From assembly GCA_963709605.1 (NCBI GenBank), contig CAVPWX010000013.1:81-64080 (forward strand): a DNA stretch of 64,000 bases, read 5' to 3'. Positions 13,585 to 30,000 of the stretch are shown in pieces (position 1 is the stretch's first letter; every line of letters begins with the position of its first letter). The notes below the pieces were generated by a model. That model saw nothing but the letters and a program-made list of their open reading frames with translations, did not search any database and was not told where the DNA came from. The translations under genes and the position numbers were made by a program. Source of the DNA: an uncultured Chloroflexia bacterium. GTDB taxonomy: Bacteria > Chloroflexota > Limnocylindria > Limnocylindrales > CSP1-4.

Positions 13585-13865
13585 TCCAGCGTCTCCCCCA
13601 GGCCGCTCTCGATCAGCGCCTGGAGGCCGGCGATCGCCGCCTCCTCGTCCTCGCCCTCGGCGACGATCCGGACGGTGTCGCCCCTGGCGGCCTTGCCGTG
13701 CGAGAGGACCGCCAGGGCGTCCTTGGCGTTCACGGCCCGGCCGCCGCGGGTGACGTTCTCGAGGGTGATGGCGGAGCGGTAGGCCGCCGCCCCCTTGACG
13801 AAGGTCCCGGCGGGTCGGAGGTGGATGCCGGACGGGTTGCGGATCTCGATCTCGAGGGTGCGCAT
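13581..13865 (-). CDS. ptsH: HPr family phosphocarrier protein
   Basis: 94 aa; NPSGIHLRPA with His15; VNAK motif; AEGEDEEAA. Confidence 0.92.
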   Translation of the reverse strand: MRTLEIEIRNPSGIHLRPAGTFVKGAAAYRSAITLENVTRGGRAVNAKDALAVLSHGKAARGDTVRIVAEGEDEEAAIAGLQALIESGLGETLE

Positions 13866-13879
13866 CGCAGGAATCCTCC

Positions 13880-14969
13880 ACGCGGTGGTCGAGTGTCGGG
13901 GACGGATCGGACGAGGCGCCGTCCACCAGCTCGGCGATGCGCGCCGGGCGGCGGGCCAGCTCGGCGCGGAGCGCCGGATCGGAGGCCGTCGCGTCGAGCA
14001 GGCGGGCGAGCGCGGCGTTCACGGGGGTCGGCACGCCCGCCACGCGGCCCGCGCGGACGACCGCCCCGTTCAGCCAGGACGCCTCGGTGGGGCCCTCGGC
14101 CGACCGCAGGTGGAGCCGCAGCGAGGGCGACTTCCCGCCGCGTGCCCGGCCCACGACGACGGCGGAGGACGGCCCGGGAGAGGGGCGCCGGCAGGCGGAT
14201 GGCAAGCGCCAGGAGCCGCACGTCGGCGCCGGGGAGGGCCACCACCGGCAGGCGCGCGGCGCGCATGACCGCGAGAGCCTCCAGCAGCTGGCGTCGCTCG
14301 ACCGCGAAGAGACGCGGGTCGGCGTAGACGGCGGCCGGGTCGCGGTCCGCCAGGGCGCTGAGGGCGTTCCCCGCCAGGTTGCCGAGGAGCTTCGACCACT
14401 TCATGGCCCGCGGATCCGCGAGCCGCCTGGCCGGGAGCCCGGCCCCCGAGAACGCGGCGACCAGCGCGTCGACGAGGTGCGTCGACCGGGCCCGCCGCCG
14501 GCGCCAGGGCGATGCCGCCCCGACCGCGCCAGCGAACCTCCGCGGGACCGGGTCGCTCGACGGGTGAGGTGAGCGAGCCCGCGATGAGCCCGATCCCCGG
14601 GCGCGCGGAGGCCACGAGCTCCTCCGCCCCGATCCCGTTCTGGATCGTCAGAACCGGCGCGGCCGGCCACACAGCCAGGTCGTCGAGGGCCCCCGCCAGG
14701 TCGAACATCTTGACGGCCACGACGACGAGGTCCGGGGCCCCGGCGAGCTCCGCCGGGGCGACGGCCCGGCTGACCCGCGCCTCGATGGTGCGGCCGTCGG
14801 GCTCGTGGAGCGTGAGCGTCTCGGGCGCGTCGCGGGGGACCCGCCGGTCGACGAGCGTCACGGAGCTGCCCGCCGCGGCGAGGAGGCCGCCCAGCAGCGT
14901 CCCGACGGCGCCCGCCCCGAGGACGGCGACGCGCCGCGGCGCCTCCCCGGCCGCCGCGGCGGCGCTCAC
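13880..14969 (-). CDS. Ketopantoate reductase (ApbA/PanE)-family oxidoreductase; apparent frameshifts near 14483 and 14165; 3' end uncertain
   Basis: VLGAGAVG Rossmann motif, VAVK, IQNGIG, KWSKLLGN, PSL..HL, TEASWLNGAVV, PTPVN spread over three frames. Confidence 0.8.
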
Positions 14970-15373
14970 TCGGGCAGCTTCGGGAGGCTCGCCGCGCCCT
15001 CGGCCGCCGCAAGCACGACGTCGAGGGGGTCGCCGATGCTCGCCTGGAGGGCGGCCACGACGGCACCCTCCACGAGCGGCCCCCCGGAGAGGCGGACCCG
15101 CCCGGCGACCTCCTCGCCGAGGAGCTCGAGGGCCGTCTGGGTGGCGAGGACGGCGCTGCCGAGGTCGACGAGGACGAGCACCCCCGCCCCGCCGTCCGCG
15201 GCCTCGATCGCCGCCATGATCGCCGCGGCGTCGGTGCCGAGCGACCCGTCGGCGATTCCCCCGGTCCCCTCGATGCGCAGGTCCGGGCCCGCCATCTGGC
15301 GGGCGAGCTCCACGGTCCCCGCGGCAATCTGCGCGGAGTGGCTGACGACGACGATCCCGACGAGCGGCTCCAT
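14966..15373 (-). CDS. dhaM: PTS-dependent dihydroxyacetone kinase phosphotransferase subunit (EIIA-Man-like DhaM), copy 1
   Basis: GIVVVSHS, LARQMA, GSLGTD, VDLGSAVL, GPLVEGAVVAA. Confidence 0.9.
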   Translation of the reverse strand: MEPLVGIVVVSHSAQIAAGTVELARQMAGPDLRIEGTGGIADGSLGTDAAAIMAAIEAADGGAGVLVLVDLGSAVLATQTALELLGEEVAGRVRLSGGPLVEGAVVAALQASIGDPLDVVLAAAEGAASLPKLPE

Positions 15374-15383
15374 GGCCGAGATC

Positions 15384-15770
15384 CTACGACGCGTCGTTGA
15401 TGATCGCCGCCAGCAGGGCAACCCCGTAGACGACGGTGACGATCCCGACGACCACGAGGACGTTCGTGATGCGCCGCTCCGTCCGCTCCGAGAACCCGAA
15501 GTCGAAGAGGATCGCGCGCACGCCGAGGAGGGCGTGGTACGTCACCGTCCCGAGGAAGGCGACCTCGACCACGACGACCACCGGGTTCCCGAGCCAGGCG
15601 ATGACGTCGTCGTAGAAGCGAAGGCCCGTGGGCACGATGAAGTGCTGGGCGACCATGTGGAGCGCCAGGAGCACGAGCAGCGCGACGCCCGTGACGACCT
15701 GGACGACGAAGGCCGGGATCCCGCGGGATCCGGCGGCCGGGCGCTCGAGCGCCGGCTGGTCGGTGGTCAT
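15384..15770 (-). CDS. SdhD-like hydrophobic membrane anchor
   Basis: Three hydrophobic helices; QVVTG, LHMVAQH, YHALLGVRAILFDF pattern of complex II anchors. Confidence 0.85.
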   Translation of the reverse strand: MTTDQPALERPAAGSRGIPAFVVQVVTGVALLVLLALHMVAQHFIVPTGLRFYDDVIAWLGNPVVVVVEVAFLGTVTYHALLGVRAILFDFGFSERTERRITNVLVVVGIVTVVYGVALLAAIINDAS

Positions 15771-15777
15771 GGCTCTC

Positions 15778-16200
15778 CTACCCCTCCCCGCCGAAGATGC
15801 GGAGGGCGCCGACGAGGGTGACCAGGCCGGCGACGACGAACGCGGCGATGAAGAGCGCCCGCTGGCGACTCACCACCAGGCCCATCCCCACGAGGCCGAC
15901 GCGGATCCCGTTCAGCCCGTGGAACAGCATCCCGGCGAGGAGGACCACGTCGAACACGAGGACCGGCGGGCTCAGGGCGATCTCGACGAAGGCGTCCCAG
16001 GCGCCGGGGCCCTGGACCAGCAGCGACAGGATCACCAGGTGCATGTACAGGTACACGACGAGGCCGATCCCGCTCAGGCGGTTCAGGATGAAGGCATAGC
16101 CCCCGAGGCGGCGGCCGCGGGGATCGAACCAGCCGACGAAGCCCCGGCGCCGGGCCGGGCCGGGCTCCGGCCGCCTCGGCTCGACGGTCGTGCTGGCCAT
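15778..16200 (-). CDS. SdhC-like cytochrome b subunit
   Basis: NRLSG, YLYMH, FHGLNGIR; three TM helices; ATG overlaps the SdhB-like stop. Confidence 0.88.
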   Translation of the reverse strand: MASTTVEPRRPEPGPARRRGFVGWFDPRGRRLGGYAFILNRLSGIGLVVYLYMHLVILSLLVQGPGAWDAFVEIALSPPVLVFDVVLLAGMLFHGLNGIRVGLVGMGLVVSRQRALFIAAFVVAGLVTLVGALRIFGGEG

Positions 16201-16946
16201 CAGCGTGTCCCTCCGAAGGAGAAGAGGCGTCGCGCCCGGGCGGCGGTTGCCGCCCGGCGCAGCCGCATGATCGCGGCGGCCGGGTCGACCCCCGACGGGC
16301 AGGCCTCGGTGCACTCCCAGGCCAGGTGGCAGCGCCACGCGGCCTGCTCGTCGTCCATCAGCCGCAGGACCGGGCCGGGGTCCCGCCCGCGGGGCTCGTC
16401 GACGAGGCGCCAGGCCGCGGCAAGGGCGGCCGGCCCCACGTAGCGCGGGTCGCTGCCGGCCACCGGGCAGGCGGAGAGGCAGATCCCGCACTCGATGCAG
16501 TCCTCGTAGCGCTCGAGCTCGTCGATCCCCTCGGCCATCTCGGCGCCCGGGATCATCTCCGAGACCCGCACGAGCGGGCGGCCGGCTTCGTCGAACTCGT
16601 CGTAGAAGGCGTCCATGTCGACGACGAGGTCGGTGACCACGGGGATGTTGCCGAGCGGCTCCACCGTGACCTCGCCGCCCTCGGGGACGGGGGTCACGCA
16701 GGCGAGGCCCTCCCGGCCGTTCACCCGCATCCCGCAGGTCCCGCACGACGCGTGGAAGCAGGAGTGGCGGAACGTCAGGGTCGGGTCCAGCTCGCGGCGG
16801 ATGGAGACGAGCGAGTCGAGGATCGTGGAGCGCGGCCCCACGGCCACGTCGAAGGTGTCGTAGCGGAGCTCCCCGGGGTCGTCGCCCTCCTTGCGGCGCG
16901 AGACGACGAAACGGGTGGTGCGGAGCTCCGCGGCAGTCTCGGTCAT
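16200..16946 (-). CDS. SdhB/FrdB-like iron-sulfur subunit
   Basis: DPTLTFRHSCFHASCGTC..LAC (2Fe-2S), DLVVD, CIECGICLSACP and CHLAWECTEACP (4Fe-4S/3Fe-4S). Confidence 0.93.
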   Translation of the reverse strand: MTETAAELRTTRFVVSRRKEGDDPGELRYDTFDVAVGPRSTILDSLVSIRRELDPTLTFRHSCFHASCGTCGMRVNGREGLACVTPVPEGGEVTVEPLGNIPVVTDLVVDMDAFYDEFDEAGRPLVRVSEMIPGAEMAEGIDELERYEDCIECGICLSACPVAGSDPRYVGPAALAAAWRLVDEPRGRDPGPVLRLMDDEQAAWRCHLAWECTEACPSGVDPAAAIMRLRRAATAARARRLFSFGGTR

Positions 16947-16956
16947 CGCTCCGCCC

Positions 16957-18144
16957 CTACGCCGCGTAGTAGGCGGTGTGGGGAAGGGTGACGATCTCCC
17001 GGGTCTGGCACGCCGCCTCGACGCCGAGCTTGCGGCAGATCACGTCGGCCGTCGTCTCGGCCATCGCCCGCAGGGTGGTGCCCTTGCCGCCGGAGATCGT
17101 CACGAAGCCCTCGACGCCGTCGGTCTCGCGGTGGTCGAAGCACTTGAACGTCCGGCTCAGCTCGCGGCCCGTGTCAGCATCTCGCGACCCGATGAGCGGG
17201 CGCGCCGCCGACCAGGCGGCCCGGCGCTCGGCGTGGCGGACGGCGGGGACCATCTTCGAGCCCTCGCTGTACATCCGCTCGACGTGGTCCTCGGGCACGC
17301 CGAGGTCGTCGGGATCGTCCACGACCCAGGAGCTGGTGCCGACCACGGAGAGCCCGCGCTGGGGGACGATGATGTCGCCGTCGCCCGAGGGGTGCAGGCG
17401 GTTGATCACCATGTTGCAGACGCGGCCGCGGACGGCGAGCAGGACGCCGGGCGACGGCCGGATCGGCACGTCGCAGCCCGCCATCACGGCGAGCTGCTCG
17501 GCCCACGGCCCGGTGGCGTTCACGACGAGATCGCCGCGGATCTCATCGTCGACGCCGTTCACGAGGTCGCGGACGCGGATCCCGGAGACGAGGCGGTCGT
17601 GGACCAGCAGCTCGGTCACCAGGGTCCAGGGACGGATGACCGCGCCCCCGGCCTTCGCGCTGGCGAAGAACCGGAGGGGCATCCGCATGGCGTCCATCGT
17701 GGCGTCGGGGACCTGGACGGCCATCTTGACCTCGGGGTTGAGGTTCGGCTCCAGGCGGAGCGCCTCCTCGCGGCTGACCCGGCGGGCCGGGATGCCGCTG
17801 GCAAGGCACGATTCGAAGAAGAGCGGCTCGTAGGCCACGTCCTCGTCCGTGATGGCGACGAAGAGGCCGTCGTTCTCCTCGAACGACCCGGGGCAGACCC
17901 GGCGGAGGATCTCGCGCTCCTCGATGCACTCGACGGCGGACTCGCGGTCCTTGACCGCGTAGCGCGCGCCGGAGTGGAGCAGGCCGTGGTGCCGGCCGGT
18001 GGTGCCCGAGGTGAGCTCGCCGCGCTCGACGAGCGTGACCCGGAAGCCGCGCAGGATCAAGTCGTGAGCGAGGGCGCCCCCGGTGCCGCCGCCGCCCACG
18101 ATGACGACGTGATAGGGCTGCCGGGGAAGTCGCGTGATGGTCAT
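16957..18144 (-). CDS. glpA: FAD-dependent glycerol-3-phosphate dehydrogenase, short GlpA type (395 aa)
   Basis: IVGGGGTG, GTTGRHHGLLHSGARYAVKD, NATGPWA, SGDGDIIVP, TISGGKGTTLRAMAE; directly downstream of glpK. Confidence 0.88.
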   Translation of the reverse strand: MTITRLPRQPYHVVIVGGGGTGGALAHDLILRGFRVTLVERGELTSGTTGRHHGLLHSGARYAVKDRESAVECIEEREILRRVCPGSFEENDGLFVAITDEDVAYEPLFFESCLASGIPARRVSREEALRLEPNLNPEVKMAVQVPDATMDAMRMPLRFFASAKAGGAVIRPWTLVTELLVHDRLVSGIRVRDLVNGVDDEIRGDLVVNATGPWAEQLAVMAGCDVPIRPSPGVLLAVRGRVCNMVINRLHPSGDGDIIVPQRGLSVVGTSSWVVDDPDDLGVPEDHVERMYSEGSKMVPAVRHAERRAAWSAARPLIGSRDADTGRELSRTFKCFDHRETDGVEGFVTISGGKGTTLRAMAETTADVICRKLGVEAACQTREIVTLPHTAYYAA

Positions 18145-18170
18145 CTGCTGCGCTCCGCGCCCGGGTAGGT

Positions 18171-18205
18171 GCTGCCCGGGGCCCCGCGACGGGGCCCCGG
18201 GCAGC
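18171..18205. terminator. Perfect 16-bp GC stem-loop between glpK and glpA (terminator or mRNA-stabilising hairpin; no U-tract)
   Basis: GCTGCCCGGGGCCCCG-cga-CGGGGCCCCGGGCAGC. Confidence 0.5.
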
Positions 18206-18218
18206 GGGGGTGGGGGTG

Positions 18219-19718
18219 CTAGTCGACCCAGCCGAACGTGCGGGTGACGGCCTTCTTCCACTGCGCGTACTCGGCGTCGACCTGGGCGGCGTCCATCGTC
18301 GGATGCCACTCGTGGTCCTTCGCCCAGTTCGCGCGGAGGTCCTCGACCTCAGCCCAGTACCCGACCGCCAGGCCGGCCGCGTAGGCCGCCCCGAGGGCCG
18401 TCGTCTCGGCGACCTTCGGCCGGATGACCGGGACCTTCAGGACGTCGGACTGGAACTGCATGAGGAGGTTGTTGTAGACCATGCCACCGTCGACCTTGAG
18501 GGCCGTCAGCGGAACGCCGGAGTCGGCGTTCATCGCGTCGAGCACCTCGCGGGTCTGCCAGGCGGTCGCCTCGAGGACGGCCCGGGCGATGTGGCCCTTG
18601 TTGACGTACCGGGTGAGGCCCGCGATGACGCCGCGGGCATCGTTCTTCCAGTACGGCGCGAAGAGCCCGCTGAACGCCGGGACGAAGTAGACGCCGCCGT
18701 TGTCCTCGACGGTGGCCGCGAGGGCCTCGATGTCGGGGGACTTCGCGATCAGCCCGATGTTGTCGCGGATCCACTGCACGAGGGCGCCGGTGATGGCGAT
18801 CGAGCCCTCGAGCGCGTACACGGCCGGCTGGTCGCCGATCTTGTACGCGAGCGTCGTGAGGAGGCCGCTCTTGCTCGGGACCGCCTTCGTGCCCGTGTTG
18901 AGGAGCATGAAGCAGCCCGTGCCGTACGTGTTCTTCGCCTCGCCGGGCGAGAAGCACGTCTGGCCGAAGAGGGCGGCCTGCTGGTCGCCCAGGTCGCCGG
19001 CGACGGGGACGCCGGCGAGATCGCCGACGGCCATGCCGTAGATCTGGGACGAGGCCTTGACGGCCGGGAGCATCTTCTCCGGCACGCCGAGGAGCGCCGT
19101 GATCTCCGGGTCCCAGGCGAGGGTGGTGTAGTTGAACATGAGCGTCCGGCTCGCGTTGGAGACGTCCGTCACGTGGACGCCGCCGTTCACGCCGCCGGTG
19201 AGGTTCCAGATGCACCAGGTGTCGATGTTGCCGAAGAGCAGGTTCCCCGCCTCGGCCTCGGCGCGCGCGCCGGCGACGTTGTCGAGGACCCACTTGGCCT
19301 TCGGGCCGGAGAAGTAGGTCGCCAGCGGCAGGCCGGTCTTCGGGCGGAGGCGGTCCGGGCCACCGTCCTTCTCGAGGGCGTCGCAGATGTCCTTCGTCCG
19401 GGTGTCCTGCCAGACGATCGCGTTGTAGACCGGCTTGCCGGTCCGCTTGTCCCAGACGACCGTCGTCTCGCGCTGGTTGGTGACGCCGACGGCGGCGAGG
19501 TCCGCGGCGCTGAGGTGGGCCTTGCCGAGGGCGGCCTTGATGACATCCAGGCTGCGCGCCCAGATCTCCATCGGGTCGTGCTCGACCCAGCCCGGCTTCG
19601 GATAGATCTGCTCGTGCTCCATCTGATCGACCGCCACGACCTCGCCGGCGTGGTTGAAGATCATGAAGCGGGTGCTCGTGGTCCCCTGGTCGAGGGCCCC
19701 CACGAAGTTCCTTGGCAT
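18219..19718 (-). CDS. glpK: Glycerol kinase
   Basis: [57 protein letters not shown]. Confidence 0.97.
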
Positions 19719-19756
19719 GTGTGTCTCCCGATATCGGTTGACCCCGATTTGCCGGG

Positions 19757-20389
19757 CTAGCGCCCGGCCCAGACCTCTGCGGCGGACCGCAGGAGGAGAT
19801 GCGAGGACGTCGCGCCGGGATCCTGGTGCCCGGCCGACCGCTCGCCCAGGTAGCTCGCCCGGCCCTTGCGGGCGACGAGCGGCACCGTGGCGAGCATGCC
19901 CTCCTGCGCCCCATCGGCCATCCGGGCCACGGCATCCCCGACGGACGCTCCGTCGGCGATCGCGGCCCGGAGGGCGTCCCGGGCGGGGATGAGGGCGTCG
20001 ACCATCGTCTTGTCCCCGGGCTCGGCCTTCCCGATCCGGAGGACCCCGCCGAGGCCTGTCTCAAAGGCCCCCGCGAACTCCTCCAGGGTCAGGGCTTCCT
20101 TTCCGGCAACGGCGCCCCCCATCTGCATGAAGAACATCCCGTAGAGCGGGCCGCTGGCGCCCCCGACCGTCGAGACGAGGGTGGTGCCGACGGTCTTGAG
20201 CGTCTGGCCGATGTCCCCACCGGGGAGGCCGTCCAGCTTGCCGATCACGGCCGTGAAGCCACGATCCATGTTGATCCCGTGATCGGCGTCTCCGATCGCC
20301 GAATCCAGCTCCGTGAGGTACGCCTTGTTCTCCGTCACGACGGCGGCGAACCGGCGAACCCAGGCGAGGATGTCGTCGTGCGAGATCAT
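19757..20389 (-). CDS. dhaL: Dihydroxyacetone kinase ADP-binding subunit DhaL, copy 1
   Basis: [48 protein letters not shown]. Confidence 0.95.
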
Positions 20390-20443
20390 CGGCGGCTCCG
20401 TTCCCGCGCTGCGGGTGTCAGCGGTGAATGACGACGTGCGGTC

Positions 20444-21442
20444 CTAGACGCCCCAGCGGAGGCCCGGCGTGTTGACCGGCGCATCCCAGTACTTCGTCAG
20501 CTCGTCATCGAGGCGGAGCAGGGTGATCGAGCAGCCGGCCATCTCGAGCGAGGTGATGTAGCTGCCGACCAGGTTGCGGGCGATCGTGATCCCACGGGCG
20601 TCGAGGATCTTCTTGAGCTCCGCGAAGATGACGTAGAGCTCGATGAGCGGCGTGCCGCCCATCCCGTTGACGAAGGCCAGGACCTTGTCGCCGGCCTTGA
20701 AGGGGAGGTCGTCGAGGATCGGCGTGGCGAGCATGCCGGTGACCTCGGCCGCGGTGGCGACCTTCATCCTGGTCCGGCCCGGCTCGCCGTGGATCCCGAT
20801 GCCGATCTCCATCTCGTCGTCGCCGAGCTCGAAGGTCGGCTTGCCGGCCTGCGGGACGGTGCAGCTCGTGAGAGCCATGCCCATCGAGCGGACGTTGTCC
20901 TGGACCTTCTGGCAGAGCGCGGTGACCGTCGCGAGGTCGGCGCCCGCCTCGGCGGCGGCACCGACGATCTTCTCGGCGAGGACGGTGCCGCCCACGCCGC
21001 GGCGGCCCGCGGTGTAGAGCGAGTCCTTGACCGCGACGTCGTCGGCGATGACGACGCTGGTGACCTCGATCCCCTCGGCCCGGGCCATCTCGGCCGCGAG
21101 CTCGAAGTTCATGATGTCGCCGGTGTAGTTCTTGACGATGTGCAGGACACCGGCGCCGCCGTCGACCGCCTTGGTCGCGGCGAGCATCTGGTCCGGCACG
21201 GGCGAGGTGAAGACGGCGCCGGGGCAGGCAGCATCGAGCATGCCCATCCCGACGAAGCCGCCGTGCATCGGCTCGTGGCCGCTGCCGCCGCCCGAGATCA
21301 CGCCGACCTTGCCCTTCTTGGGGGCGTCGGCGCGCACGACGACGTTGGGCTCGATGACGCGGACGAGATCCGCGTGCGCCGCGGCGACGCCGAGCAGGGC
21401 GTCGTCGACGACCGTCTCGGGAGCATTGATGAGCTTCTTCAT
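20444..21442 (-). CDS. dhaK: Dihydroxyacetone kinase subunit DhaK
   Basis: [51 protein letters not shown]; GGAGG RBS. Confidence 0.96.
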
Positions 21443-21570
21443 CCGTTCCTCCAATGACATGGTGCCGGGTGCTCGGGAACGTGTGCTGGACGGGTGCGCG
21501 CCGGCGGCGAGGCCGTCGTGCCGCCGGCGCGCGATGCGTGCAGGGTCAGGCCGAGACGATCAGGCGCTGA

Positions 21571-22336
21571 TCAGCTCGGGACGACCAGGGGGATGAACCC
21601 ATACTGGTACACGAGCGCCGCGACGAAGCCGCCGACGAGCGGGACCGACCACCGGGATCCAGGAGTACCCCCAGTCGGAGCCGCCCTTGCCCGCGATCGG
21701 CAGGATCGCGTGCATGATGCGCGGCCCCAGGTCGCGGGCCGGGTTGATCGCGTATCCGGTCGTCCCGCCGAGGGACAGGCCGATGACCAGGACGAGCAGG
21801 GCCACGTTCAGCGCGCCCATGTCGCCCATCGCGCCGCTGTTGCCGAAGGTGAGGATCACGAAGACCAGGACGAAGGTCCCGATGACCTCGGAGACGAAGT
21901 TCCAGGCGGGGTTGCGGATGGCCGGCGCGGTGCAGAAGACCGCCAGCTTGAGGCCCTTGTCTTCCGTCTCGGCCCAGTGCGGGTAGTAGTGAAGGAAGAC
22001 GAGGAAGGCGCCGATGAACGCGCCGACGAACTCGCCGGCCACGTAGATCCCGGCATACACGGACTCGAGGTCGCCCCCGGCGATCGCCGTGTTGACGAGC
22101 AGGCCCAGGGTCACCGCCGGGTTCAGGTGCGCGTTGCCGAGCGGCAGGTCGCCGCCCACGCCGGCCGCCACGATGACGCCGACGAAGACGGCCATTGCCC
22201 ACGCGAAGGTGATGACGATCCAGCCGCTGGCATTCGCCTTCGACTTGGCGAGGAGAACGCCTGCGACCACGCCGTCGCCGAGGAGGATCAGGATCATCGT
22301 CCCGAAGACCTCGGACATGAAGATATTCAGTTCCAT
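21571..22336 (-). CDS. glpF: MIP family glycerol uptake facilitator; one extra base near 21643
   Basis: HLNPAVT and AINPARD (aquaglyceroporin-type); removing one base restores WIPVVGPLVGGFVAALVY...TGA at 21571. Confidence 0.92.
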
Positions 22337-22564
22337 GCTCTCTCCCTCTTGGATGAAGGAAGCGCGCCGTTCGCGCGGAGGGCGACACGTCGTCGCCGAT
22401 CGACTGAGGAACCGGCGGGCGAGCACCCGGTTCGGGCCCGCCGGGCAGGGCACAGCACGATCTGCCGGGGTGCGTCCCTCCCGTTCGTATCGCGGCCACG
22501 GCCTCGGGCCGCGCGACCGTCTGGGCGCGGTCGGCGCACGGTGCCCGCCGGCACCGTTGCGAGA

Positions 22565-22612
22565 AGGGTACGACCGGGCACGGCCGGGAAACGTCAAGAC
22601 TTCGTCCAGATT
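22565..22612 (-). promoter_or_regulatory. Putative glpF-operon promoter: 11-bp-period direct repeat upstream of a -10-like TACCCT
   Basis: Minus strand AATCTGGACGA|AGTCTTGACGT (22612-22591) and TACCCT (22570-22565); spacing typical of OmpR/PhoB-family sites. Confidence 0.45.
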
Positions 22613-22660
22613 CGGCGGGCAGGCCGCGCGACGGGGCTCGTCGCCGGCGCGGCGAGCAGG

Positions 22661-23335
22661 TCAGACGTCGGCGGGGACGGCGGGGTCGGCGGCTGCGTCG
22701 GCCAGGGCCCGCAGCAGGATCGCGCTCGAGGCCGCCCCCGGGTCGAGGTGGCCGATGGAGCGCTCGCCGAGGTAGCTCGCCCGGCCCTTCGTGGCCAGCA
22801 GGGGGATCGTCCGCTGGGCGCCCGCCTCCGCTGCGGCGGCCGCGCGTGCCGTCGCGCCGGCGAGGGTGGCACCCTCCTCCAGCGCCGCCGCGTATGCCGC
22901 CCGGGCCGGGACGAGGGCGTCGAGCATCGTCTTCTCGCCCGGCGTCGCCCGCCCCAGCGCCGCGACCGCGTCCACTGCCGAGGCGAAGGCGGCGGCGGCC
23001 CTCGCCTCGCGGGCGACGGGATACCCGGCGACCTCCCTCTGGTCGAGCTCCGCCAGGGCGGCCCCGGCGCGCTGGAACGCCCGCCCGTAGAGGGCGCCGC
23101 TGGCTCCGCCGACGGTCCCCATGAGGACGCGCCCGGCGGCAGCCAGCACCGCCGCCGGCGGCTCGCCGGGCAGGTCGTCGGCGTCGATCCGGCGGGCCAG
23201 CTCGCGGAAGCCCCGGTCGAGGTTGATCCCGTGGTCACCGTCGCCGATCGCGGCGTCGAGGTCGGTGAGCCGCTCGCGGGCCTCGGCGACGCGCCCGGCG
23301 GCCAGCCGCAGCCAGCGGGGCAGGAGCCCGTCCAT
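22661..23335 (-). CDS. dhaL: DhaL paralogue, copy 2
   Basis: [51 protein letters not shown]. Confidence 0.9.
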   Translation of the reverse strand: MDGLLPRWLRLAAGRVAEARERLTDLDAAIGDGDHGINLDRGFRELARRIDADDLPGEPPAAVLAAAGRVLMGTVGGASGALYGRAFQRAGAALAELDQREVAGYPVAREARAAAAFASAVDAVAALGRATPGEKTMLDALVPARAAYAAALEEGATLAGATARAAAAAEAGAQRTIPLLATKGRASYLGERSIGHLDPGAASSAILLRALADAAADPAVPADV

Positions 23336-23763
23336 CAGGCCGCGGGCCCGGCGAGCCAGTCCGGCGGCAGCTTGTCGGCCTCGCGCTCGGCGTCGGCGAC
23401 GGCGAGGACGCGGTCGAGAGACGCCCCGCCGGCCGCCTCGACCGCCGCTCGCACGGCACCTTCCACGAGCGGGCCACGGCTGACCCGGATGCGGGTCCGC
23501 TCGGCGGCCGACATCTCCTCGAGCGCCATCTCGAGGGCGAGGACCGCGCTGCCGAGGTCGAGGAGGACCACCGCGCCGTCGCCGCCGGAGGCCGCCAGCG
23601 CCGCGCGCATCGCGTCGCGGATCGCCGGGCTGCTCGTCCCGAGGTTGCCCACCGCGGTCCCGCCCGCGATCGCCACCGGCACCGCCGGGGCGCTCTGGGC
23701 GACCATCGCCCGCAGCGCCCGGAGCAGCTCGGGGCTGTGGCCCACCAGCACCAGGGAGGTCAT
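23335..23763 (-). CDS. DhaM-like EIIA paralogue, copy 2
   Basis: MTSLVLVGHS, GNLGTS, LDLGSAVL, GPLVEGAV; stop overlaps dhaL2 start. Confidence 0.85.
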   Translation of the reverse strand: MTSLVLVGHSPELLRALRAMVAQSAPAVPVAIAGGTAVGNLGTSSPAIRDAMRAALAASGGDGAVVLLDLGSAVLALEMALEEMSAAERTRIRVSRGPLVEGAVRAAVEAAGGASLDRVLAVADAEREADKLPPDWLAGPAA

Positions 23764-23844
23764 CCCTCTCGCTCCCTCCGGTCCCGCGGCGACGACGGCC
23801 GGGCGTCGCGTCCCGCGGCTCGCCGCCGTAGACTCAGGCGGCCC

Positions 23845-24558
23845 ATGAACAGGATAGGGTCTGCCGGGCCCCGCCCGCCCGCCGGTGCCGCTCCGGCCCG
23901 CATCGATGCGTTCGCCGCGGCGGACGTCGTCCGCTTCGTCGAGCGCGCGGCTTCGTCCCTGGCGCGGCACGAGGCGCTCCTCGATCGCCTCGACGCGGCG
24001 CTCGGCGACGGCGACCACGGCGCCAACATGACGATCGGGTTCGGCGTCGCCCTCCCCGCCGTGCGGGCCGGGCTCGCCGAGCGGCCCGACGACGTCGGCG
24101 AGCTGCTGCGGCTCCTGGGCCACAGCCTCGTCGCGAGCGTCGGCGGCGCCAGCGGACCCCTCTACGGCACCGCCTTCATCGAGGCGGGGTTCGCTCTCGC
24201 CGGGAGCCCGGCCGCGGGACCCCGCGAGCTCGCGGACGCGCTCGAGGCCGGGCGGGCGGGGCTGGCTCGCCGGGGGCGCTGCGCGATCGGCGACAAGACG
24301 ATCCTCGACGCCCTCGACCCTGCGGTCCGGGCGCTCCGCGCGCAGGCCGACGCCGGCGCCCCGCTCGACGCCTGCGTCGCCGCCGCCGCCGCCGGCGCGG
24401 CGGGCGGGATGCGGGCGACGATCCCGCTCGTCGCCCGCCGCGGGCTGGCGCTCCGTCTCGGCGAGCGATCCCGCGGCCACCGCGACCCCGGCGCCGTCTC
24501 GTGCTTCCTGCTCCTCGGGGCGATGGCCCGCGCCGTCCGCGGCGAGGCGACGACGTGA
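23845..24558 (+). CDS. DhaL paralogue, copy 3 (degenerate GRASY motif)
   Basis: [52 protein letters not shown]; ATG 10 nt after TAGACT. Confidence 0.88.
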   Translation: MNRIGSAGPRPPAGAAPARIDAFAAADVVRFVERAASSLARHEALLDRLDAALGDGDHGANMTIGFGVALPAVRAGLAERPDDVGELLRLLGHSLVASVGGASGPLYGTAFIEAGFALAGSPAAGPRELADALEAGRAGLARRGRCAIGDKTILDALDPAVRALRAQADAGAPLDACVAAAAAGAAGGMRATIPLVARRGLALRLGERSRGHRDPGAVSCFLLLGAMARAVRGEATT

Positions 24559-26279
24559 CCGACGATCCGATCTCCGCGGGAACCCGGGCCGGACAGCCGG
24601 CGCCGGCCGCCGACGCCGCGGCGCTCGAGGCGCGGATCCACGAGCTCGAAGCGGAGCGCCGCCGCGTCTTCGAGGACGCCCAGCGGGAAGCGGACGCAGT
24701 CTTCGCCCAGTACCAGCTGAGCCAGCTCCTGGCCGCGGGGGGCAGCGTCGACGACATGGCCGCAGCGGTCCTCGCCGAGGTGGCCCGGGCCGTGGGAGCC
24801 CACGCCGCCGCCCTGTGGCTGGCACGGCCGGCGACGACGACGCTCGAGCTCGTGGCCACCTTCCCCGGCCCTGCCGAGACGATCGAGGCGCGGAACCGCC
24901 AGGCCATCCGGGGCGCGTTCGCGGACCTCGCCGCGGCCCGCGGCTGGACCGCGGCCCGCGGCTGGAGCGGGGTGACCCTGCCCGAGGGTCGCGCCGTGGG
25001 GGGAGGCGGGCCGGACGGCGCCGAGCCGGGCGTCGTCGGCTACCTGGCCGTCGGCCCCGACGAGGGGGCCGCCCTCGAGCCGGCGCACACCCGCTACCTC
25101 GCCAGCGTCCGCCTGGAGCTGGCGGTCACCCTGCGGGCGGCCCAGCTGCGGGCGTCGCTGGCCCGCGAGCAGGCGACGCTCGCCGCCATCCTCGAAGGCG
25201 CCACGGACGCGATCGTGGCCGTCGATGCGCACCGCCGGGTCGTCCGCCTCAACGGGGCGGCGGCGGAGCTCGTCGGGACGCCCGCCCGCGCCGGGACCGG
25301 GATGCACTGCTCCGAGTTCCTCGGCTGCGCCCGACCGCCCGCGGACGGGACGCCGGCCGGCGAGCCGCTCTGCGGCCCGCGGTGCCCGTTCCTCGACGTG
25401 CTGGATGCCGGCCGGCCGATCGTCGGCCGCGAGATGCGCGTCCGCCACCGCGACGGGTCCGCCATCCCCGTCGCCGCGAGCATCTCGCGGATGCCGGCGC
25501 CCGACGGGGGCGCGGTCGCGATCCTCCGCGACCTGCGGGCCGCGCGATCGCTGGACGAGGCCAAGACGAGCTTCGTCGCCGCCGTCTCGCACGAGCTCCG
25601 CACGCCGCTCGCGCTCATCGACGGGTACACCCAGAGCCTGCTCCATCTCGACCTCGACGCCCCCACGGCGCGCCGCCACGTCGAGCGGATCGCCGGGGCG
25701 GCCCAGCGCCTGGCCAGCCTCATCGACGACATCATCGACGTCAGCCAGGTCGAGAGCGACGCCCTCGTCCTGCGCCGGACGCCGCTGGCCCTCGACGGCC
25801 TCCTGCGGGCCTACGTCGCGGAGCGCGCCGAGCTCCCCGACGTCGGGGCCGTGGCGCTGACGCTGCCGCGCTGGCTGCCGGCGGTGGACGCCGACGCGAC
25901 GCGGATCCGCCAGGTGATCGGCAACCTGGTCCAGAACGCGGAGAAGCACGCCGGGCGGGCGGCGACGATCGAGATCCGGGCCCGGCGACTCGATCGCGGG
26001 ACGGTGGTGGTCACGGTCGCCGACAACGGGCGCGGCATCGCCCCCGAGGATCGCGACCGCGCCTTCGAGCGCTTCTACCGCGGCCAGCGGGTCCGCGAAT
26101 CGCACGTCCCCGGGAGCGGCCTGGGCCTCTACCTCTGTCGCCGCATCGTCGAGGCCCACGGGGGGTGGATCCGCCTCGACGCGACGACGCGGGGAACCTC
26201 GATCTCCTTCGGCCTCCCCGTGGCCCAGTTCACCGGCGAGGGCGGCCCCGGGCGCGACGGGCCGGAGGCGCCGGCGTGA
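24555..26279 (+). CDS. Soluble PAS-domain sensor histidine kinase (possible N-terminal GAF-like region)
   Basis: AILEGATDAIVAVD..LNGAA (PAS), VSHELRTPL (H box), NLVQNAEKH, DNGRGI, FERFYR, GSGLGL; no TM helix; GTG overlaps dhaL3 stop. Confidence 0.93.
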   Translation: MTDDPISAGTRAGQPAPAADAAALEARIHELEAERRRVFEDAQREADAVFAQYQLSQLLAAGGSVDDMAAAVLAEVARAVGAHAAALWLARPATTTLELVATFPGPAETIEARNRQAIRGAFADLAAARGWTAARGWSGVTLPEGRAVGGGGPDGAEPGVVGYLAVGPDEGAALEPAHTRYLASVRLELAVTLRAAQLRASLAREQATLAAILEGATDAIVAVDAHRRVVRLNGAAAELVGTPARAGTGMHCSEFLGCARPPADGTPAGEPLCGPRCPFLDVLDAGRPIVGREMRVRHRDGSAIPVAASISRMPAPDGGAVAILRDLRAARSLDEAKTSFVAAVSHELRTPLALIDGYTQSLLHLDLDAPTARRHVERIAGAAQRLASLIDDIIDVSQVESDALVLRRTPLALDGLLRAYVAERAELPDVGAVALTLPRWLPAVDADATRIRQVIGNLVQNAEKHAGRAATIEIRARRLDRGTVVVTVADNGRGIAPEDRDRAFERFYRGQRVRESHVPGSGLGLYLCRRIVEAHGGWIRLDATTRGTSISFGLPVAQFTGEGGPGRDGPEAPA

Positions 26280-27013
26280 CCGCCGCGCCGCCCGTGCCCG
26301 GGCCGATCGCCGGGCGGGGCGAGCGGATCCTGGTCGTCGAGGACGAGCCGGCCTTCGCCGAGCTGATCTCGCTCTGGCTGGAGCGGCACGGCTGGCAGAC
26401 CGAGATCGCCCCGGACGGCGCCCACGCCCTCCGCGCCGTCGAGGAGCGCCTGCCGGACCTCATCGTCCTCGACCTGAGCCTGCCGCGCGTCGACGGCTGG
26501 AAGGTCATCGAGCGGGTCCGCGAGCAGAGCCTCGTGCCGATCATCGTCGTCACGGCCCGCGGATCGGAGGCGGACAAGGTGCGCGGGCTGGCCAGCGGCG
26601 CGGACGACTACGTGACGAAGCCGCTCAGCTTCCCCGAGCTGGTGGCCCGCGTGGCGGCCGCCCTCCGCCGCGCCCGTGGCGCGCCAGCCATGCCCGGCGC
26701 GACCGCCACGCTCGAGCATCCCGGGATCCGGATCGACGGGTTGAGCCACCGGGTCGAGGTCGGCGATCGGCTGGTCCACCTCACGCCCACCGAGTACCGG
26801 CTCCTCCGTCACCTCGCGGAGCGGCCGGGAGTGCTCGTGCCCCACGCCGACCTCCTGGTGGCGGTCTGGGGACCCGGCTACCGCGACGACCACCACCTCC
26901 TGCGGGTGGCGATCCGCAACCTGCGGGCCAAGCTCGCGAGCGGGGCGGGCGGCCGCCGCTACATCGAGACGGAGTACGGGCTTGGCTACCGCTTCTCCGC
27001 CGCCGAGGGCTGA
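26276..27013 (+). CDS. OmpR/PhoB-family response regulator
   Basis: ILVVEDE, LDLSLP, GADDYVTKP, LTPTEYRLL, IETEYGLGYRF; GTG overlaps kinase stop. Confidence 0.95.
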   Translation: MTAAPPVPGPIAGRGERILVVEDEPAFAELISLWLERHGWQTEIAPDGAHALRAVEERLPDLIVLDLSLPRVDGWKVIERVREQSLVPIIVVTARGSEADKVRGLASGADDYVTKPLSFPELVARVAAALRRARGAPAMPGATATLEHPGIRIDGLSHRVEVGDRLVHLTPTEYRLLRHLAERPGVLVPHADLLVAVWGPGYRDDHHLLRVAIRNLRAKLASGAGGRRYIETEYGLGYRFSAAEG

Positions 27014-30000
27014 CGCCCGCCCACGGCGCCGTCGCCCGGCCCGCCGTCGCCCTGCCCGCCGCCCGGGGCAGCGCCGCCGTCGCCCGTCCCGCGCGCCTCC
27101 CGCGCCGCCGCGACCCGCGCGACGAGCGCCTGGGTGAGGGCCCACGCCCGGGCCGGGTCGCGCGGGGCGCGGATCCGGACCTGGCTGGCGGCGAACGTGA
27201 CGTCGCCGGGCCGGACGCCCGGCAGGGGAGCCCCGGCGACGAGGCGCATCGCCTCCCCACGCGAGAGCCCGCTCCCGAAGCGGACGACGAGGAGCCCCTC
27301 CTCGCGGGCGAGCGAGGCGATCCCCGCCGCCTCGGCGGCCAGGCGGAGCTCGGCGACCTCCACGAGGCGAAGGACCGGCGGCGGCAGGGGCCCGAACCGA
27401 TCGACGACCTCCTGGCGGAAGGCCGCCAGGTCTCCCGCGGTCCGGGCCCGCGCGAGACGCCGGTAGAGCTCCAGCTTCTGGGCCTCGTCCGGGACGTAGG
27501 AGTCGGGCAGGTGCGCGTCCACCGGCAGGTCCACCGTGGCCCCGGGCGACGGGCGGAGGGGCTCCCGACCCTCCCAGCTCGCCTTGCGCTCCTCGACCGC
27601 CTCGGCGAGGAGCCGCGTGTAGAGATCGAAGCCGACGTCGGCCATGTGACCCGACTGCTCGCCGCCGAGGATGTTCCCGGCGCCCCGGATCTCGAGGTCG
27701 GCGAGGGCGATCTGGAAGCCGGCCCCCAGCTCCGAGGCGTTGAAGATCGCCTGCAGCCGCTTGCGCGCCTCGTCGGAGATGCGGTCGCGGCGCCGGTAGA
27801 GCAGGTACGCGTAGGCACGCCGGTTGCTCCGCCCGACCCGCCCCCGCAGCTGGTAGAGCTGGGCCAGGCCGAGGGCGTCGGCGCGGTCGATGATGATCGT
27901 GTTCGCGTTCGGGATGTCCAGGCCGGACTCGATGATGGTGGTGCAGACGAGGACGTCCGCCTCTCCTGCCGCGAAGGCCCGCATCACCGTCTCGAGGGCC
28001 CCCTCGCTCATCTGGCCGTGCCCGACGACGATCCGCGCGGCGGGCAGGAGCCGCCGCAGCTGGTCCGCCTGGGCCTCGATCGTCTCGACCCGGTTGTGGA
28101 CGAAGAAGACCTGGCCGCCGCGGTCGAGCTCGCGCAGGATGGCGTCCTTCACGAGGCCCGCCGAGGCCTCGGCGACGCGCGTCTGGATCGGCAGGCGGTC
28201 CTCCGGGGGCGTCTCGATCACCGACAGGTCGCGGACCCCGACGAGGGCCAGGTTGAGGGTCCGCGGGATCGGCGTCGCCGAGAGGGTCAGGACGTCCACC
28301 TCGGTCCGCAGCTGCTTGAGGCGCTCCTTGGCGGCCACGCCGAAGCGCTGCTCCTCGTCCACGACGAGCAGGCCGAGGTCGCGGAAGCGGACGTCGCTGG
28401 AGAGGAGCCGGTGGGTCCCCACCACGAGGTCGACGGAGCCCGCAGCCAGGCCGGCCAGCGTCGCCGTCCTCTCCCGCGCCGGGACGGCCCGGGAGAGGAG
28501 CCGGACCGTGGCGGGGAAGGCGGCGAAGCGCTGGTCGAACGTCCGGACGTGCTGGTCCGCCAGCACGGTGGTCGGCACGAGGACGGCCACCTGGCGCCCG
28601 TCCTCGATCGCCTTGAAGGCCGCCCGCAGGGCGATCTCGGTCTTCCCGTACCCCACGTCGCCCACCACGATCCGGTCCATCGGGCGGGCCGTCTCCATGT
28701 CGGCCTTGACCTCGGCAACCGCCCGCAGCTGGTCGACCGTCTCCTCGTAGGGGAACGAGGCCTCCAGCTCCTGCTGCCACGGCGTGTCCTGGCCGAAGGC
28801 GTGGCCCTCCGCCGCGGCGCGGGCCGCGTAGAGGCGGAGGAGGTCGTCGGCGAGGTCGGCGACGGCGCGCCTGACGCGGGCGGTCGTGCGGGCCCACTCG
28901 GTCCCGCCGAGGCGGGAGAGCGACGGGTCGCTCGGCGCCGGCGTAGCGCGTGACGCGGGTCACCTGCTCCACGGGCACGAAGATCCGGTCGCCGGCGGCG
29001 AAGGAGAGCTCGAGGTAGTCGCGCTCCTCGCCGGCGCCGCCCCGGCGCAGCATCCGCTCGTAGCGGGCGATGCCGTGGTCGACATGGACGACGAGGTCGC
29101 CGGGGGTGAGCCGCTCCAGGATGTCGCGGGGGACGACCCGCCGGAGGGCCTTCGGGCGGCGGACCCGCACGTTCCCGAAGAGCTCCCGGTCGGTGACCAC
29201 GACGAGGCCGTCGGGGCCGCCCGAGAACCCGGCATTGAGGCTGCGCCCGACGAGCGCGACGGCGCCCGGCGGCGGCACGCCGGGGCGCATCGTGACCCCG
29301 GCAGGGATGCCGGCCTCGCCGAGGAGCTCCGCGAGGCGGGTCGCCTGGTCGGACGCCAGGACGATCCGCGGCGCGGACGCCGGCCCTCCCGCCCGCCAGC
29401 GCTCGACGGCCCGGGCGAGTCCGGCGCTGCGGCCCGGCGGGAGGATCGGCTCGCGCCAGCCGAAGGCGTCCTCGAGAACGGCCCCGCCGCCGATGGCGGC
29501 GACCGGGCCCGACTCCCAGGTCAGCTCCAGGGTCCGACCGGCGAGGAGCCGACCCTTCCAGTCGCGGGGGGCGAGATAGGCGTCCGGCCACGCCGCCGGG
29601 AGCTCGCCGGCGGCGACGAGGTCGCGGCGCCGCTCCGCGGCCTGGTCCCACAGGAACTCGGCGGCGGCGGCCACCTCGCCCGGCTCGTCCAGCACGAGGA
29701 GCGTCGCCGGATCGAGGTGGTCGAGCCCGCTGGCCGGGCAGGCGAAGGCGGCCCAGACCTCGGCGGCGTCGCCGACGTCGAGCGCCCGCGTCGGGGCCCG
29801 ACCCGGCAGCCCGGCGGAGGCCGCCCGGCGCGGGGCCGCGGGCGCCTCGCCCTGGGCGGCCCCTCCCTCGAGCCGGGCGAGATCCTCCGCGAGGCGATCC
29901 GGCAGCCGGGCGGCCAGGCGCCCGAGCCGCGCCCGGAGCTCCTCGACGCCGCCGGCCGGGACGAGGAACTCGCTCGCCGGCAGCAGCTCCACCGCGTCCG

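Follow-up and report, generated by a model that had tools for sequence, protein, structure and literature searches.

A DhaL paralogue encoded with a soluble histidine kinase: a candidate co-sensor at the glycerol/dihydroxyacetone locus of Candidatus Limnocylindria

Regulation of dihydroxyacetone (DHA) kinase genes by a subunit of the enzyme itself has been described in Escherichia coli, where DhaL activates the regulator DhaR and DhaK represses it, according to whether DhaL carries ATP or ADP (PMC10084136). Here, we analyzed a stretch of 64,000 nucleotides (hereafter the window: contig CAVPWX010000013.1 of assembly GCA_963709605.1, positions 81 to 64,080 of the forward strand) from an uncultured Chloroflexia bacterium of the Limnocylindrales, in which a third dhaL gene, dhaL3, is followed by the genes of a histidine kinase and of a response regulator, divergently from genes of glycerol and DHA metabolism. 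In Lactococcus lactis, the TetR-type regulator DhaS works with DhaQ, a DhaK paralogue that is a dedicated, non-catalytic co-regulator of the dha operon. Furthermore, accessory proteins gate histidine kinases in other pathways: PII acts with NtrB, and KipI and Sda act with KinA. To our knowledge, none of PII, KipI and Sda has a Dak2 fold and none connects the DHA kinase that depends on the phosphotransferase system (PTS) to a two-component system, and the trigger-enzyme regulation of the dha operon known to us involves one-component regulators in each case (DhaR; DhaS with DhaQ). A literature search of titles and abstracts found no publication linking DhaL to a histidine kinase; 'two-component' and 'histidine kinase' have 0 occurrences in a genomic-context paper on the dha regulon.

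By comparison with these systems, the dhaL3-kinase arrangement appears to follow the DhaR-type logic of trigger-enzyme control, with new wiring. As in E. coli, (i) a DhaL protein would be the protein ligand of a dha-gene regulator, (ii) the regulator genes diverge from the dha operon and (iii) the receiver is predicted to have a GAF-like domain joined by a linker helix to a PAS module. In contrast to DhaR, which is a one-component regulator of the enhancer-binding type, the receiver is here a histidine kinase acting with a separate OmpR/PhoB-type regulator: instead of the AAA+/HTH output of DhaR, we found HisKA and HATPase_c domains and a separate Response_reg/Trans_reg_C protein. Moreover, the DhaL involved is a dedicated, diverged paralogue, whereas in E. 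coli the catalytic DhaL is the ligand; an additional N-terminal helix forms part of the predicted docking site, and the kinase sensor has no sequence similarity to DhaR at E≤10. The use of a dedicated paralogue of a DHA kinase subunit as co-regulator recalls DhaS/DhaQ of L. lactis. However, DhaQ derives from DhaK and its partner is a one-component TetR-family protein, while a DhaL paralogue would be combined here with a two-component kinase. As for PII with NtrB, or KipI and Sda with KinA, a small cytoplasmic carrier of a metabolic signal would bind a soluble kinase and alter its output.

The association of dhaL3 with the kinase and regulator genes is conserved across Ca. Limnocylindria, a class of uncultured Chloroflexota from soil, as a first-pass annotation of the window, which proposed that dedicated DhaL paralogues report to the kinase, had suggested verifying. 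DhaL3-type genes (60-81% identity) are found in 20 of the 24 genomes of the genus, and all 20 have the kinase gene directly downstream; the four remaining genomes (67-78% complete) yielded only other DhaL types. The dhaM2 gene is divergent from dhaL3 in 19 of these 20 loci, the 20th being interrupted by a contig end. In a phylum sample of 400 genomes (no claim is based on two unpublished genomes that it includes), full-length matches to the kinase sensor are confined to the family of the window and to one other family of the same class. All 11 full-length loci, from six genera of the first family and from the second family, have dhaL3 upstream and the regulator gene downstream. A scan of public data, with one genome per species, gave 153 relatives of the sensor. 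Eighty were kept, from records titled Chloroflexota, Chloroflexi/Chloroflexia, Ca. Limnocylindrales/Limnocylindria or, for two of them, Anaerolineaceae. dhaL3 directly precedes the kinase gene in 77 of the 78 public loci that have upstream sequence (two of the 80 have none). The regulator gene follows the kinase gene in 78 of the 80, the contigs of the other two stopping inside the kinase gene. An in-frame NTGA overlap joins dhaL3 to the kinase gene in 60 of 77 loci and the kinase gene to the regulator gene in 60 of 78. This gene order holds although kinase identities drop to about 40% and DhaL3 identities to about 50%, and although neighboring dha genes are rearranged; dhaM2 is divergent from dhaL3 in nearly all public loci. 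In 16 distant loci, the genes divergent from dhaL3-kinase-regulator form a dhaM-(MIP)-dhaK-dhaL operon, so that each locus encodes one DhaK, one catalytic DhaL and one DhaM in addition to DhaL3. With one catalytic DhaL already present per DhaK, the linkage of dhaL3 is not owed to extra dhaK genes.

The source genome (assembly 80% complete) leads to the same point. It contains two Dak1 genes, five Dak2 matches and two EIIA-man genes, both EIIA-man (DhaM-type) matches being on the contig of the window. The first-pass annotation had considered that additional dhaK genes elsewhere might account for DhaL2 and DhaL3 as ordinary catalytic subunits. A second dhaK does exist, on contig C6. Since it lies directly after a dhaL of its own (pair at 106411-107957, order L, K; L002, L005), it gives no reason to regard DhaL2 or DhaL3 as spare catalytic subunits. 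The DhaL of contig C6 has DGDFG in place of DGDHG. The fifth Dak2 match is a 568-amino-acid open frame on contig C9, which we take to be of the Dak2-fusion type.

DhaL3 is a clear member of the DhaL family: its Dak2 score is 147 bits for a cut-off of 27, and it matches E. coli DhaL (chain 3pnl_B) with an E-value of 3.6e-34. All its nucleotide- and magnesium-binding residues, as aligned to E. coli DhaL, are invariant in a 68-sequence alignment. In the E. coli enzyme, Asp35 and Asp37 are described as holding two magnesium ions (PMC9136124). Among 73 DhaL3 rows, D50, D55, D57, H58, G100-G104, K151-T152 and D214-A217 are fixed in 72 or 73. We take Asp30 of E. coli DhaL to be the third magnesium-holding aspartate. 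By contrast, another motif was replaced in DhaL3. In 105 catalytic DhaL copies, defined as those encoded after dhaK or dhaM, the motif K-G-R-A-S-Y (residues 176-181 in E. coli) has its lysine in 93% of the rows and its G, R, S and Y in 100% each. Because it is near-invariant in these copies, we infer that it is needed for catalysis. DhaL3 has R-G-L-A-L-R instead (positions 199-204), with L201 aligned to Arg178 of E. coli DhaL, and R199, L201, L203 and R204 are fixed in 92-99% of the 73 rows. Twelve positions are fixed in DhaL3 with another residue in the 105 catalytic copies, and four of them belong to this motif.

The DhaL tree (179 rows, root not fixed) places the 73 DhaL3 rows on one side of a branch with a support of 100 in the Shimodaira-Hasegawa-like approximate likelihood ratio test (SH-aLRT) and a length of 1.31; no other inner branch among those printed is as long. 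A single group (SH-aLRT 99) gathers the 38 dhaL2-type rows and is nested with the operon DhaL found at the 16 distant loci, and the dhaL1 type falls in other groups. Since DhaL2 retains K-G-R-A-S-Y and groups with the distant operon DhaL, dhaM2-dhaL2 does not look like a sensor pair but like what is left of an ancestral catalytic operon. The glpF-dhaK-dhaL1-glpK block would have arisen later, if this order of events is right. Hence, the proposal of dedicated DhaL paralogues is supported in silico for DhaL3, given its kinase linkage, long-stem clade, own motif and predicted complex (see below), and is not supported for DhaL2, given its catalytic-type motif and its grouping.

Some database proteins of about 1040-1060 amino acids (P0010-P0017) carry EIIA-man, HPr, enzyme I and Dak2 domains in one chain, the Dak2 part being 46-51% identical to DhaL3. 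A Rosetta-stone search for DhaL-kinase fusions returned four proteins with Dak2 and kinase domains (P0006, P0007, P0020 and P0027; 55-80% identical to DhaL3). All are single-member clusters and they were not counted. The sole contig of P0006 has 233,688 nucleotides, as does the record of L079, where dhaL3 is broken into two frames. Given the 4-nucleotide gene overlaps in metagenome-assembled genomes (MAGs) obtained from long reads, these fusions look like indel artefacts. Many loci from long-read MAGs (L073, L079, L095, L099, L100, L107, L115, L146 and others) have genes broken into two or three adjacent frames, which are probably indel errors and would also account for these single-member fusion proteins.

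The kinase encoded downstream of dhaL3 is soluble, as the first-pass annotation had recognized: no membrane helix is apparent (highest 19-residue Kyte-Doolittle mean, 1.40). Its PAS, HisKA (58 bits) and HATPase_c (101 bits) domains exceed the Pfam cut-offs, and SHELRTP, DNGRG and GSGLGL can be read in the translation. For the GAF-like region that had been proposed ahead of the PAS domain, the GAF_3 score (20.5 bits) is under the cut-off of 27. With an H-box in HisKA, HATPase_c, a receiver and a winged helix, kinase and regulator have all the features of a classical OmpR/PhoB two-component system; neither protein reaches an NCBIfam equivalog cut-off. Conservation within the sensor is highest in an N-terminal helix, F39-A60, both in an alignment of 12 sequences and in a larger one of 68, in which A46, D47, F50, A51, Y53, S56, Q57 and E75 are invariant. 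An AlphaFold2 model of residues 1-345 (mean predicted local distance difference test score, pLDDT, 88.4) comprises helices 17-61 and 65-80, a GAF-like sheet, a long linker helix (178-217) and a PAS domain running into the dimerization and histidine phosphotransfer (DHp) helix. Furthermore, the PAS domain has an insertion with four cysteines: C252, C258 and C277 are invariant in 68 orthologues, and position 273 is a cysteine in most of 12 aligned rows. This cluster could be a metal, Fe-S or redox site.

Prediction of a complex between kinase residues 1-345 and DhaL3, a check that the first-pass annotation had put forward, supports binding: the interface score (ipSAE) is 0.64, while the best of three controls reaches 0.24. 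The mark used is met by 58 of 80 solved complexes and by 2 of 110 mismatched pairs, a calibration that is only roughly valid here (own alignments). The runs share at least 95% of their contacts, with a partner pLDDT of at least 87. Kinase residues 39-79 are predicted to pack against residues 54, 101-116, 139-145 and 198-206 of DhaL3, i.e., its nucleotide face and the changed motif, with R199, L201, L203 and R204 all within the interface. The kinase side corresponds to the stretch that had been identified as the most conserved of the sensor before the prediction. Interface residues are invariant on both sides, in the kinase and in the DhaL3 alignments. Moreover, 5 of the 12 DhaL3-specific positions are among the 20 interface residues (odds ratio 10, one-sided Fisher p 0.0014). 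Since the model never saw the catalytic paralogues, this overlap is partly independent of it.

Natural controls are provided by two loci of genus g5 of the same family. L052 and L150 encode paralogous kinase-regulator pairs, divergent beside glpF (L052) or glpF-glpK (L150). No dhaL gene is present within these loci, both kinases are devoid of the N-terminal helix motif, and a search of one of these genomes (94% complete) gave no DhaL match at E≤1e-10. At these two loci, the helix motif is thus missing together with dhaL3, indicating, from a small sample and with one counter-example (L122, see below), that kinase helix and DhaL3 come and go together.

Taken as a whole, we consider it rather probable that DhaL3 acts as a co-sensor, docked on the kinase helix, and that its state is set by phosphorylated DhaM (DhaM~P) and DHA-loaded DhaK, or by competition from DhaK. 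DhaL3 would be a regulatory paralogue of DhaL, the ADP/ATP-binding subunit of the PTS-dependent DHA kinase, co-produced with a soluble GAF-like/PAS histidine kinase and an OmpR/PhoB-type regulator. Its nucleotide-binding face would dock on the N-terminal helical module of the kinase, and its state would alter kinase autophosphorylation, presumably in a nucleotide-dependent manner. This state could be the ADP or ATP load, which would depend on DhaM~P supplied by the PTS and on DHA-loaded DhaK; alternatively, DhaK may compete with the kinase for the same face of DhaL3. The putative signal would be the ADP/ATP state, the PTS or DHA. The phosphorylated regulator would then act at a direct-repeat box upstream of glpF-dhaK-dhaL1-glpK, its putative target, and probably also at the divergent dhaM2/dhaL3 promoters. 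A broader scheme can be proposed more tentatively, which we hold a little below even chances: a glycerol-linked soluble kinase would have gained a dedicated DhaL paralogue as a pseudo-enzyme plug-in, along with the N-terminal helix on which it docks. The PTS would write the ADP/ATP load of this paralogue via DhaM~P and DHA-loaded DhaK would erase it, so that PTS state and substrate flux become kinase output. The helix-less paralogues without DhaL beside glpFK would represent this switch in a form devoid of the plug-in.

Several points weigh against a co-sensor role of DhaL3. The complex score is the confidence of the model itself, and the pass could partly reflect memory of the DhaL surface, because DhaL-DhaK and DhaL-DhaR complexes are in the PDB; the controls do not include DhaL1 or DhaL2 with the kinase. 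One locus, L122, which is the exception among the 78 public loci, carries a helix-bearing kinase with no dhaL3 upstream. DhaL3 exceeds the TIGR02365 cut-off for DhaL equivalogs (163.4 vs 138.3) and may thus still be catalytically active; its score is lower than those of DhaL2 (206.7) and DhaL1 (238.1). All loci come from related MAGs of one class (Ca. Limnocylindria), so their counts are not independent events. The likeness to DhaR is also limited. In a PDB fold search with the kinase model, E. coli DhaR(N) chains (4lrx, 4lrz and 4lry) rank 2-4 with E-values of about 4e-8 over about 310 aligned columns, but with TM-scores of only 0.24-0.27 and with generic tandem PAS proteins at adjacent ranks. 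A sequence search of the sensor (residues 1-352) against PDB chains returned no DhaR at E≤10, its only matches being to H-box and PAS regions (E≥0.085). The models are thus compatible with the same build in both proteins (GAF-like domain, linker, PAS), without demonstrated homology. Lastly, the invariant cysteines of the PAS domain suggest a second or alternative input, whichever reading holds.

Three other explanations have to be weighed. According to the first, DhaL3 binds the kinase without reporting on DHA or the PTS, being either a fixed accessory subunit or a sensor of the ATP/ADP ratio that makes no exchange with DhaK or DhaM. DhaL3 has changed precisely the motif that is near-invariant in the copies working with DhaK and DhaM, and may therefore have lost these contacts. 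Moreover, a capping segment of E. coli DhaL is described as inserting into DhaK and DhaM (PMC9136124), and this cap could not be mapped onto DhaL3. However, the module always adjoins divergently transcribed dhaM and dhaK genes, a linkage that a pure energy sensor does not need, and it is missing in the examined genome that has no DhaL match. We therefore regard this explanation as unlikely, although it deserves consideration.

According to the second, DhaL3 is an ordinary catalytic DhaL that is merely co-expressed, the kinase sensing glycerol, glycerol-3-phosphate or redox through its GAF-like and PAS domains. The TIGR02365 score, the complete nucleotide site and the cysteine cluster speak for this reading, and the helix-less kinases beside glpF indicate that this kinase family can work without DhaL. 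Yet it would leave unexplained the replacement of K-G-R-A-S-Y, the long stem branch, the presence of one catalytic DhaL per DhaK in distant loci, the success of the complex prediction against its controls and a helix that accompanies dhaL3 and is lacking where this gene is lacking, L122 apart; we consider it improbable. Finally, it is very doubtful that the pairing is meaningless, i.e., a gene order inherited in one lineage combined with a false-positive complex: common descent within one class could account for conservation and 2 of 110 mismatched pairs passed the calibration, but the order is kept at about 40% (kinase) and 50% (DhaL3) identity amid rearranged dha genes, 60 of 77 loci retain the overlap of start and stop codons, and both proteins have invariant residues at the interface.

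The locus around dhaL3 is summarized in Table 1. Since the window has about 75% G+C, frames were picked by third-position G+C, then confirmed with Pfam. All genes of the first-pass inventory (the dhaM2-dhaL2 pair and, divergently, dhaL3-kinase-regulator) are present, including the GTGA overlaps at both the dhaL3/kinase and the kinase/regulator junctions. That annotation correctly counted three DhaL, two DhaM and one DhaK in the window; the rest of the genome adds a second Dak1 gene and two Dak2 matches. The catalytic dhaK-dhaL-dhaM set that it listed also exists, although not as a contiguous block: dhaL1 and dhaM1 are separated by glpK, a glpD-like gene and two Sdh-like genes. The dhaM2/dhaL2 junction is a TGATG overlap, dhaL2 is 325 nucleotides from glpF, and the start of dhaL3 lies 81 nucleotides from the divergent start codon of dhaM2. 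The TIGR02364 score of DhaM2 (90.9 bits) is under the cut-off of 98.25.

Table 1. Features of the dhaL3 locus (positions in the window).
Feature	Position	Strand	Description
dhaM1	14966-15421	-	then HPr (13581-13865) and ptsI
glpK	18219-19718	-	Pfam FGGY
glpF-dhaK-dhaL1-glpK	18219-22336	-	probable target operon; Pfam MIP, Dak1, Dak2, FGGY; synteny
dhaL1	19757-20389	-	Dak2 183 bits; TIGR02365 238.1 bits
dhaK	20444-21460	-	Dak1 451.9 bits
glpF	21560-22336	-	Pfam MIP
glpF 5' leader	22337-22564	-	about 230 nucleotides; conserved in nucleotide alignment of 14 genus sequences
Candidate regulator box	22589-22610	-	two 11-bp direct repeats, TCTGGACGAAG and TCTTGACGTTT; 18 nucleotides upstream of a TACCCT -10-like hexamer (22570-22565)
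dhaL2	22661-23335	-	224 amino acids, catalytic-type DhaL; Dak2 166.5 bits; TIGR02365 206.7 bits
dhaM2	23335-23763	-	142 amino acids, EIIA-man-type DhaM; Pfam EIIA-man 55.9 bits; His9 within LVLVGHS
Divergent promoter region, putative	23764-23856		TAGACT (23829-23834, +), 10 nucleotides before the dhaL3 ATG; AGGATA (23851-23856), TATCCT on the minus strand
dhaL3	23845-24558	+	237 amino acids, DhaL paralogue, proposed kinase co-sensor; Dak2 147 bits
DhaL3 residues 198-206	24436-24462	+	R-R-G-L-A-L-R-L-G, in place of the catalytic-type motif
Histidine kinase	24555-26279	+	574 amino acids, soluble; N-terminal helix, GAF-like, linker helix, PAS, HisKA, HATPase
Predicted DhaL3 docking helices (kinase residues 39-79)	24669-24791	+	F-x-E-A-Q-R-E-A-D-x-x-F-A-Q-Y-Q-L-S-Q-L-L-A
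PAS cysteine cluster (C252, C258, C273, C277)	25308-25385	+	C-x5-C-x14-C-x3-C, within a PAS insertion
Response regulator	26276-27013	+	245 amino acids, OmpR/PhoB family; Response_reg 97 bits, Trans_reg_C 70 bits

Between glpK and dhaM1 (15384-18309, minus strand), the gene of a glpD-like FAD oxidoreductase precedes those of an Fe-S protein resembling SdhB (16200-16946) and of a membrane subunit of the Sdh_cyt type (15384-15770), which suggests a membrane-anchored three-subunit glycerol-3-phosphate dehydrogenase. An open reading frame between dhaM1 and the HPr gene (13730-14969, minus strand), which we take to resemble ketopantoate reductase, seems to be split over two frames near 14400, with its N-terminal part in 14070-14969 and its second part in 13730-14404. 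This split is a frameshift or an assembly error.

The best NCBIfam model for the regulator is PhoB (191 bits, under the cut-off of 296). The direct repeats upstream of glpF would fit an activator site of the OmpR/PhoB type, at which the regulator may bind. This box is unique in the window at up to three mismatches, with 0 copies expected by chance and no second copy of the pattern, and repeats of the same form occur in 20 of the 41 glpF-upstream regions examined. A looser GAC-N8-GAC pattern is not above chance (18 found vs 27.7 expected). The systems without dhaL at L052 and L150 have similarly built repeats with different half-sites at the same place upstream of glpF, namely 11-bp direct repeats of their own, TTTCGAGAAT and GATTTGAGGAT, with TAGAGT after them.

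In the spacer between dhaM2 and dhaL3, a block including TAGACT and AGGATA is conserved in 16 genus-level sequences. TAGACT (plus strand) and TATCCT (minus strand) are about 20 bp apart and point away from each other, TATCCT lying inside codons 3-4 of dhaL3. They may correspond to two overlapping divergent promoters, judging from their sequence, and the TATCCT hexamer would explain the rare AGG and ATA codons at this place. A -10-like hexamer, TAGACT or TACACT, was picked from 58 of 65 intergenic sequences, near the start where read by eye, and a palindrome, GCCGCC-N9-GGCGGC, flanks TAGACT within the genus. A scan of 22250-24000 for consensus promoters and terminators found nothing. A direct repeat of the spacer (two copies of GTCCCGCGGC) was dropped as a regulator site, not being conserved in relatives.

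The glpF leader is conserved in nucleotide sequence within the genus far above the level of the 70-80% identical proteins encoded around it. Its 5' hairpin (CAACGGUGCC...GGCACCGUG) has two compensatory pairs between two sequence groups, and a GC-rich hairpin followed by UUCCUUC immediately precedes the glpF ribosome-binding site. Its folding z-score is only -1.6, and an Rfam scan of 13000-28000, which includes the leader, gave no match at E≤1. This region is a candidate for a new cis-regulatory RNA or a protein-bound leader. A GlpP-type antiterminator was rejected as its reader, with no PF04309 match in the genome (80% complete).

Automatic annotation calls DhaL3 an ordinary DhaL because it passes the TIGR02365 cut-off. 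The predicted docking module is definable, about 40 kinase residues and about 20 DhaL3 residues, and is perhaps reusable. The conserved pairing of dhaL3 with the kinase gene suggests a two-component switch whose input is an enzyme subunit and not a small molecule. If confirmed, a DhaL copy gating a histidine kinase would be a third wiring for trigger-enzyme control of dha genes and a clear example of a duplicated enzyme subunit that has become a sensor. It would also provide these bacteria with a direct path from the PTS to a two-component system.

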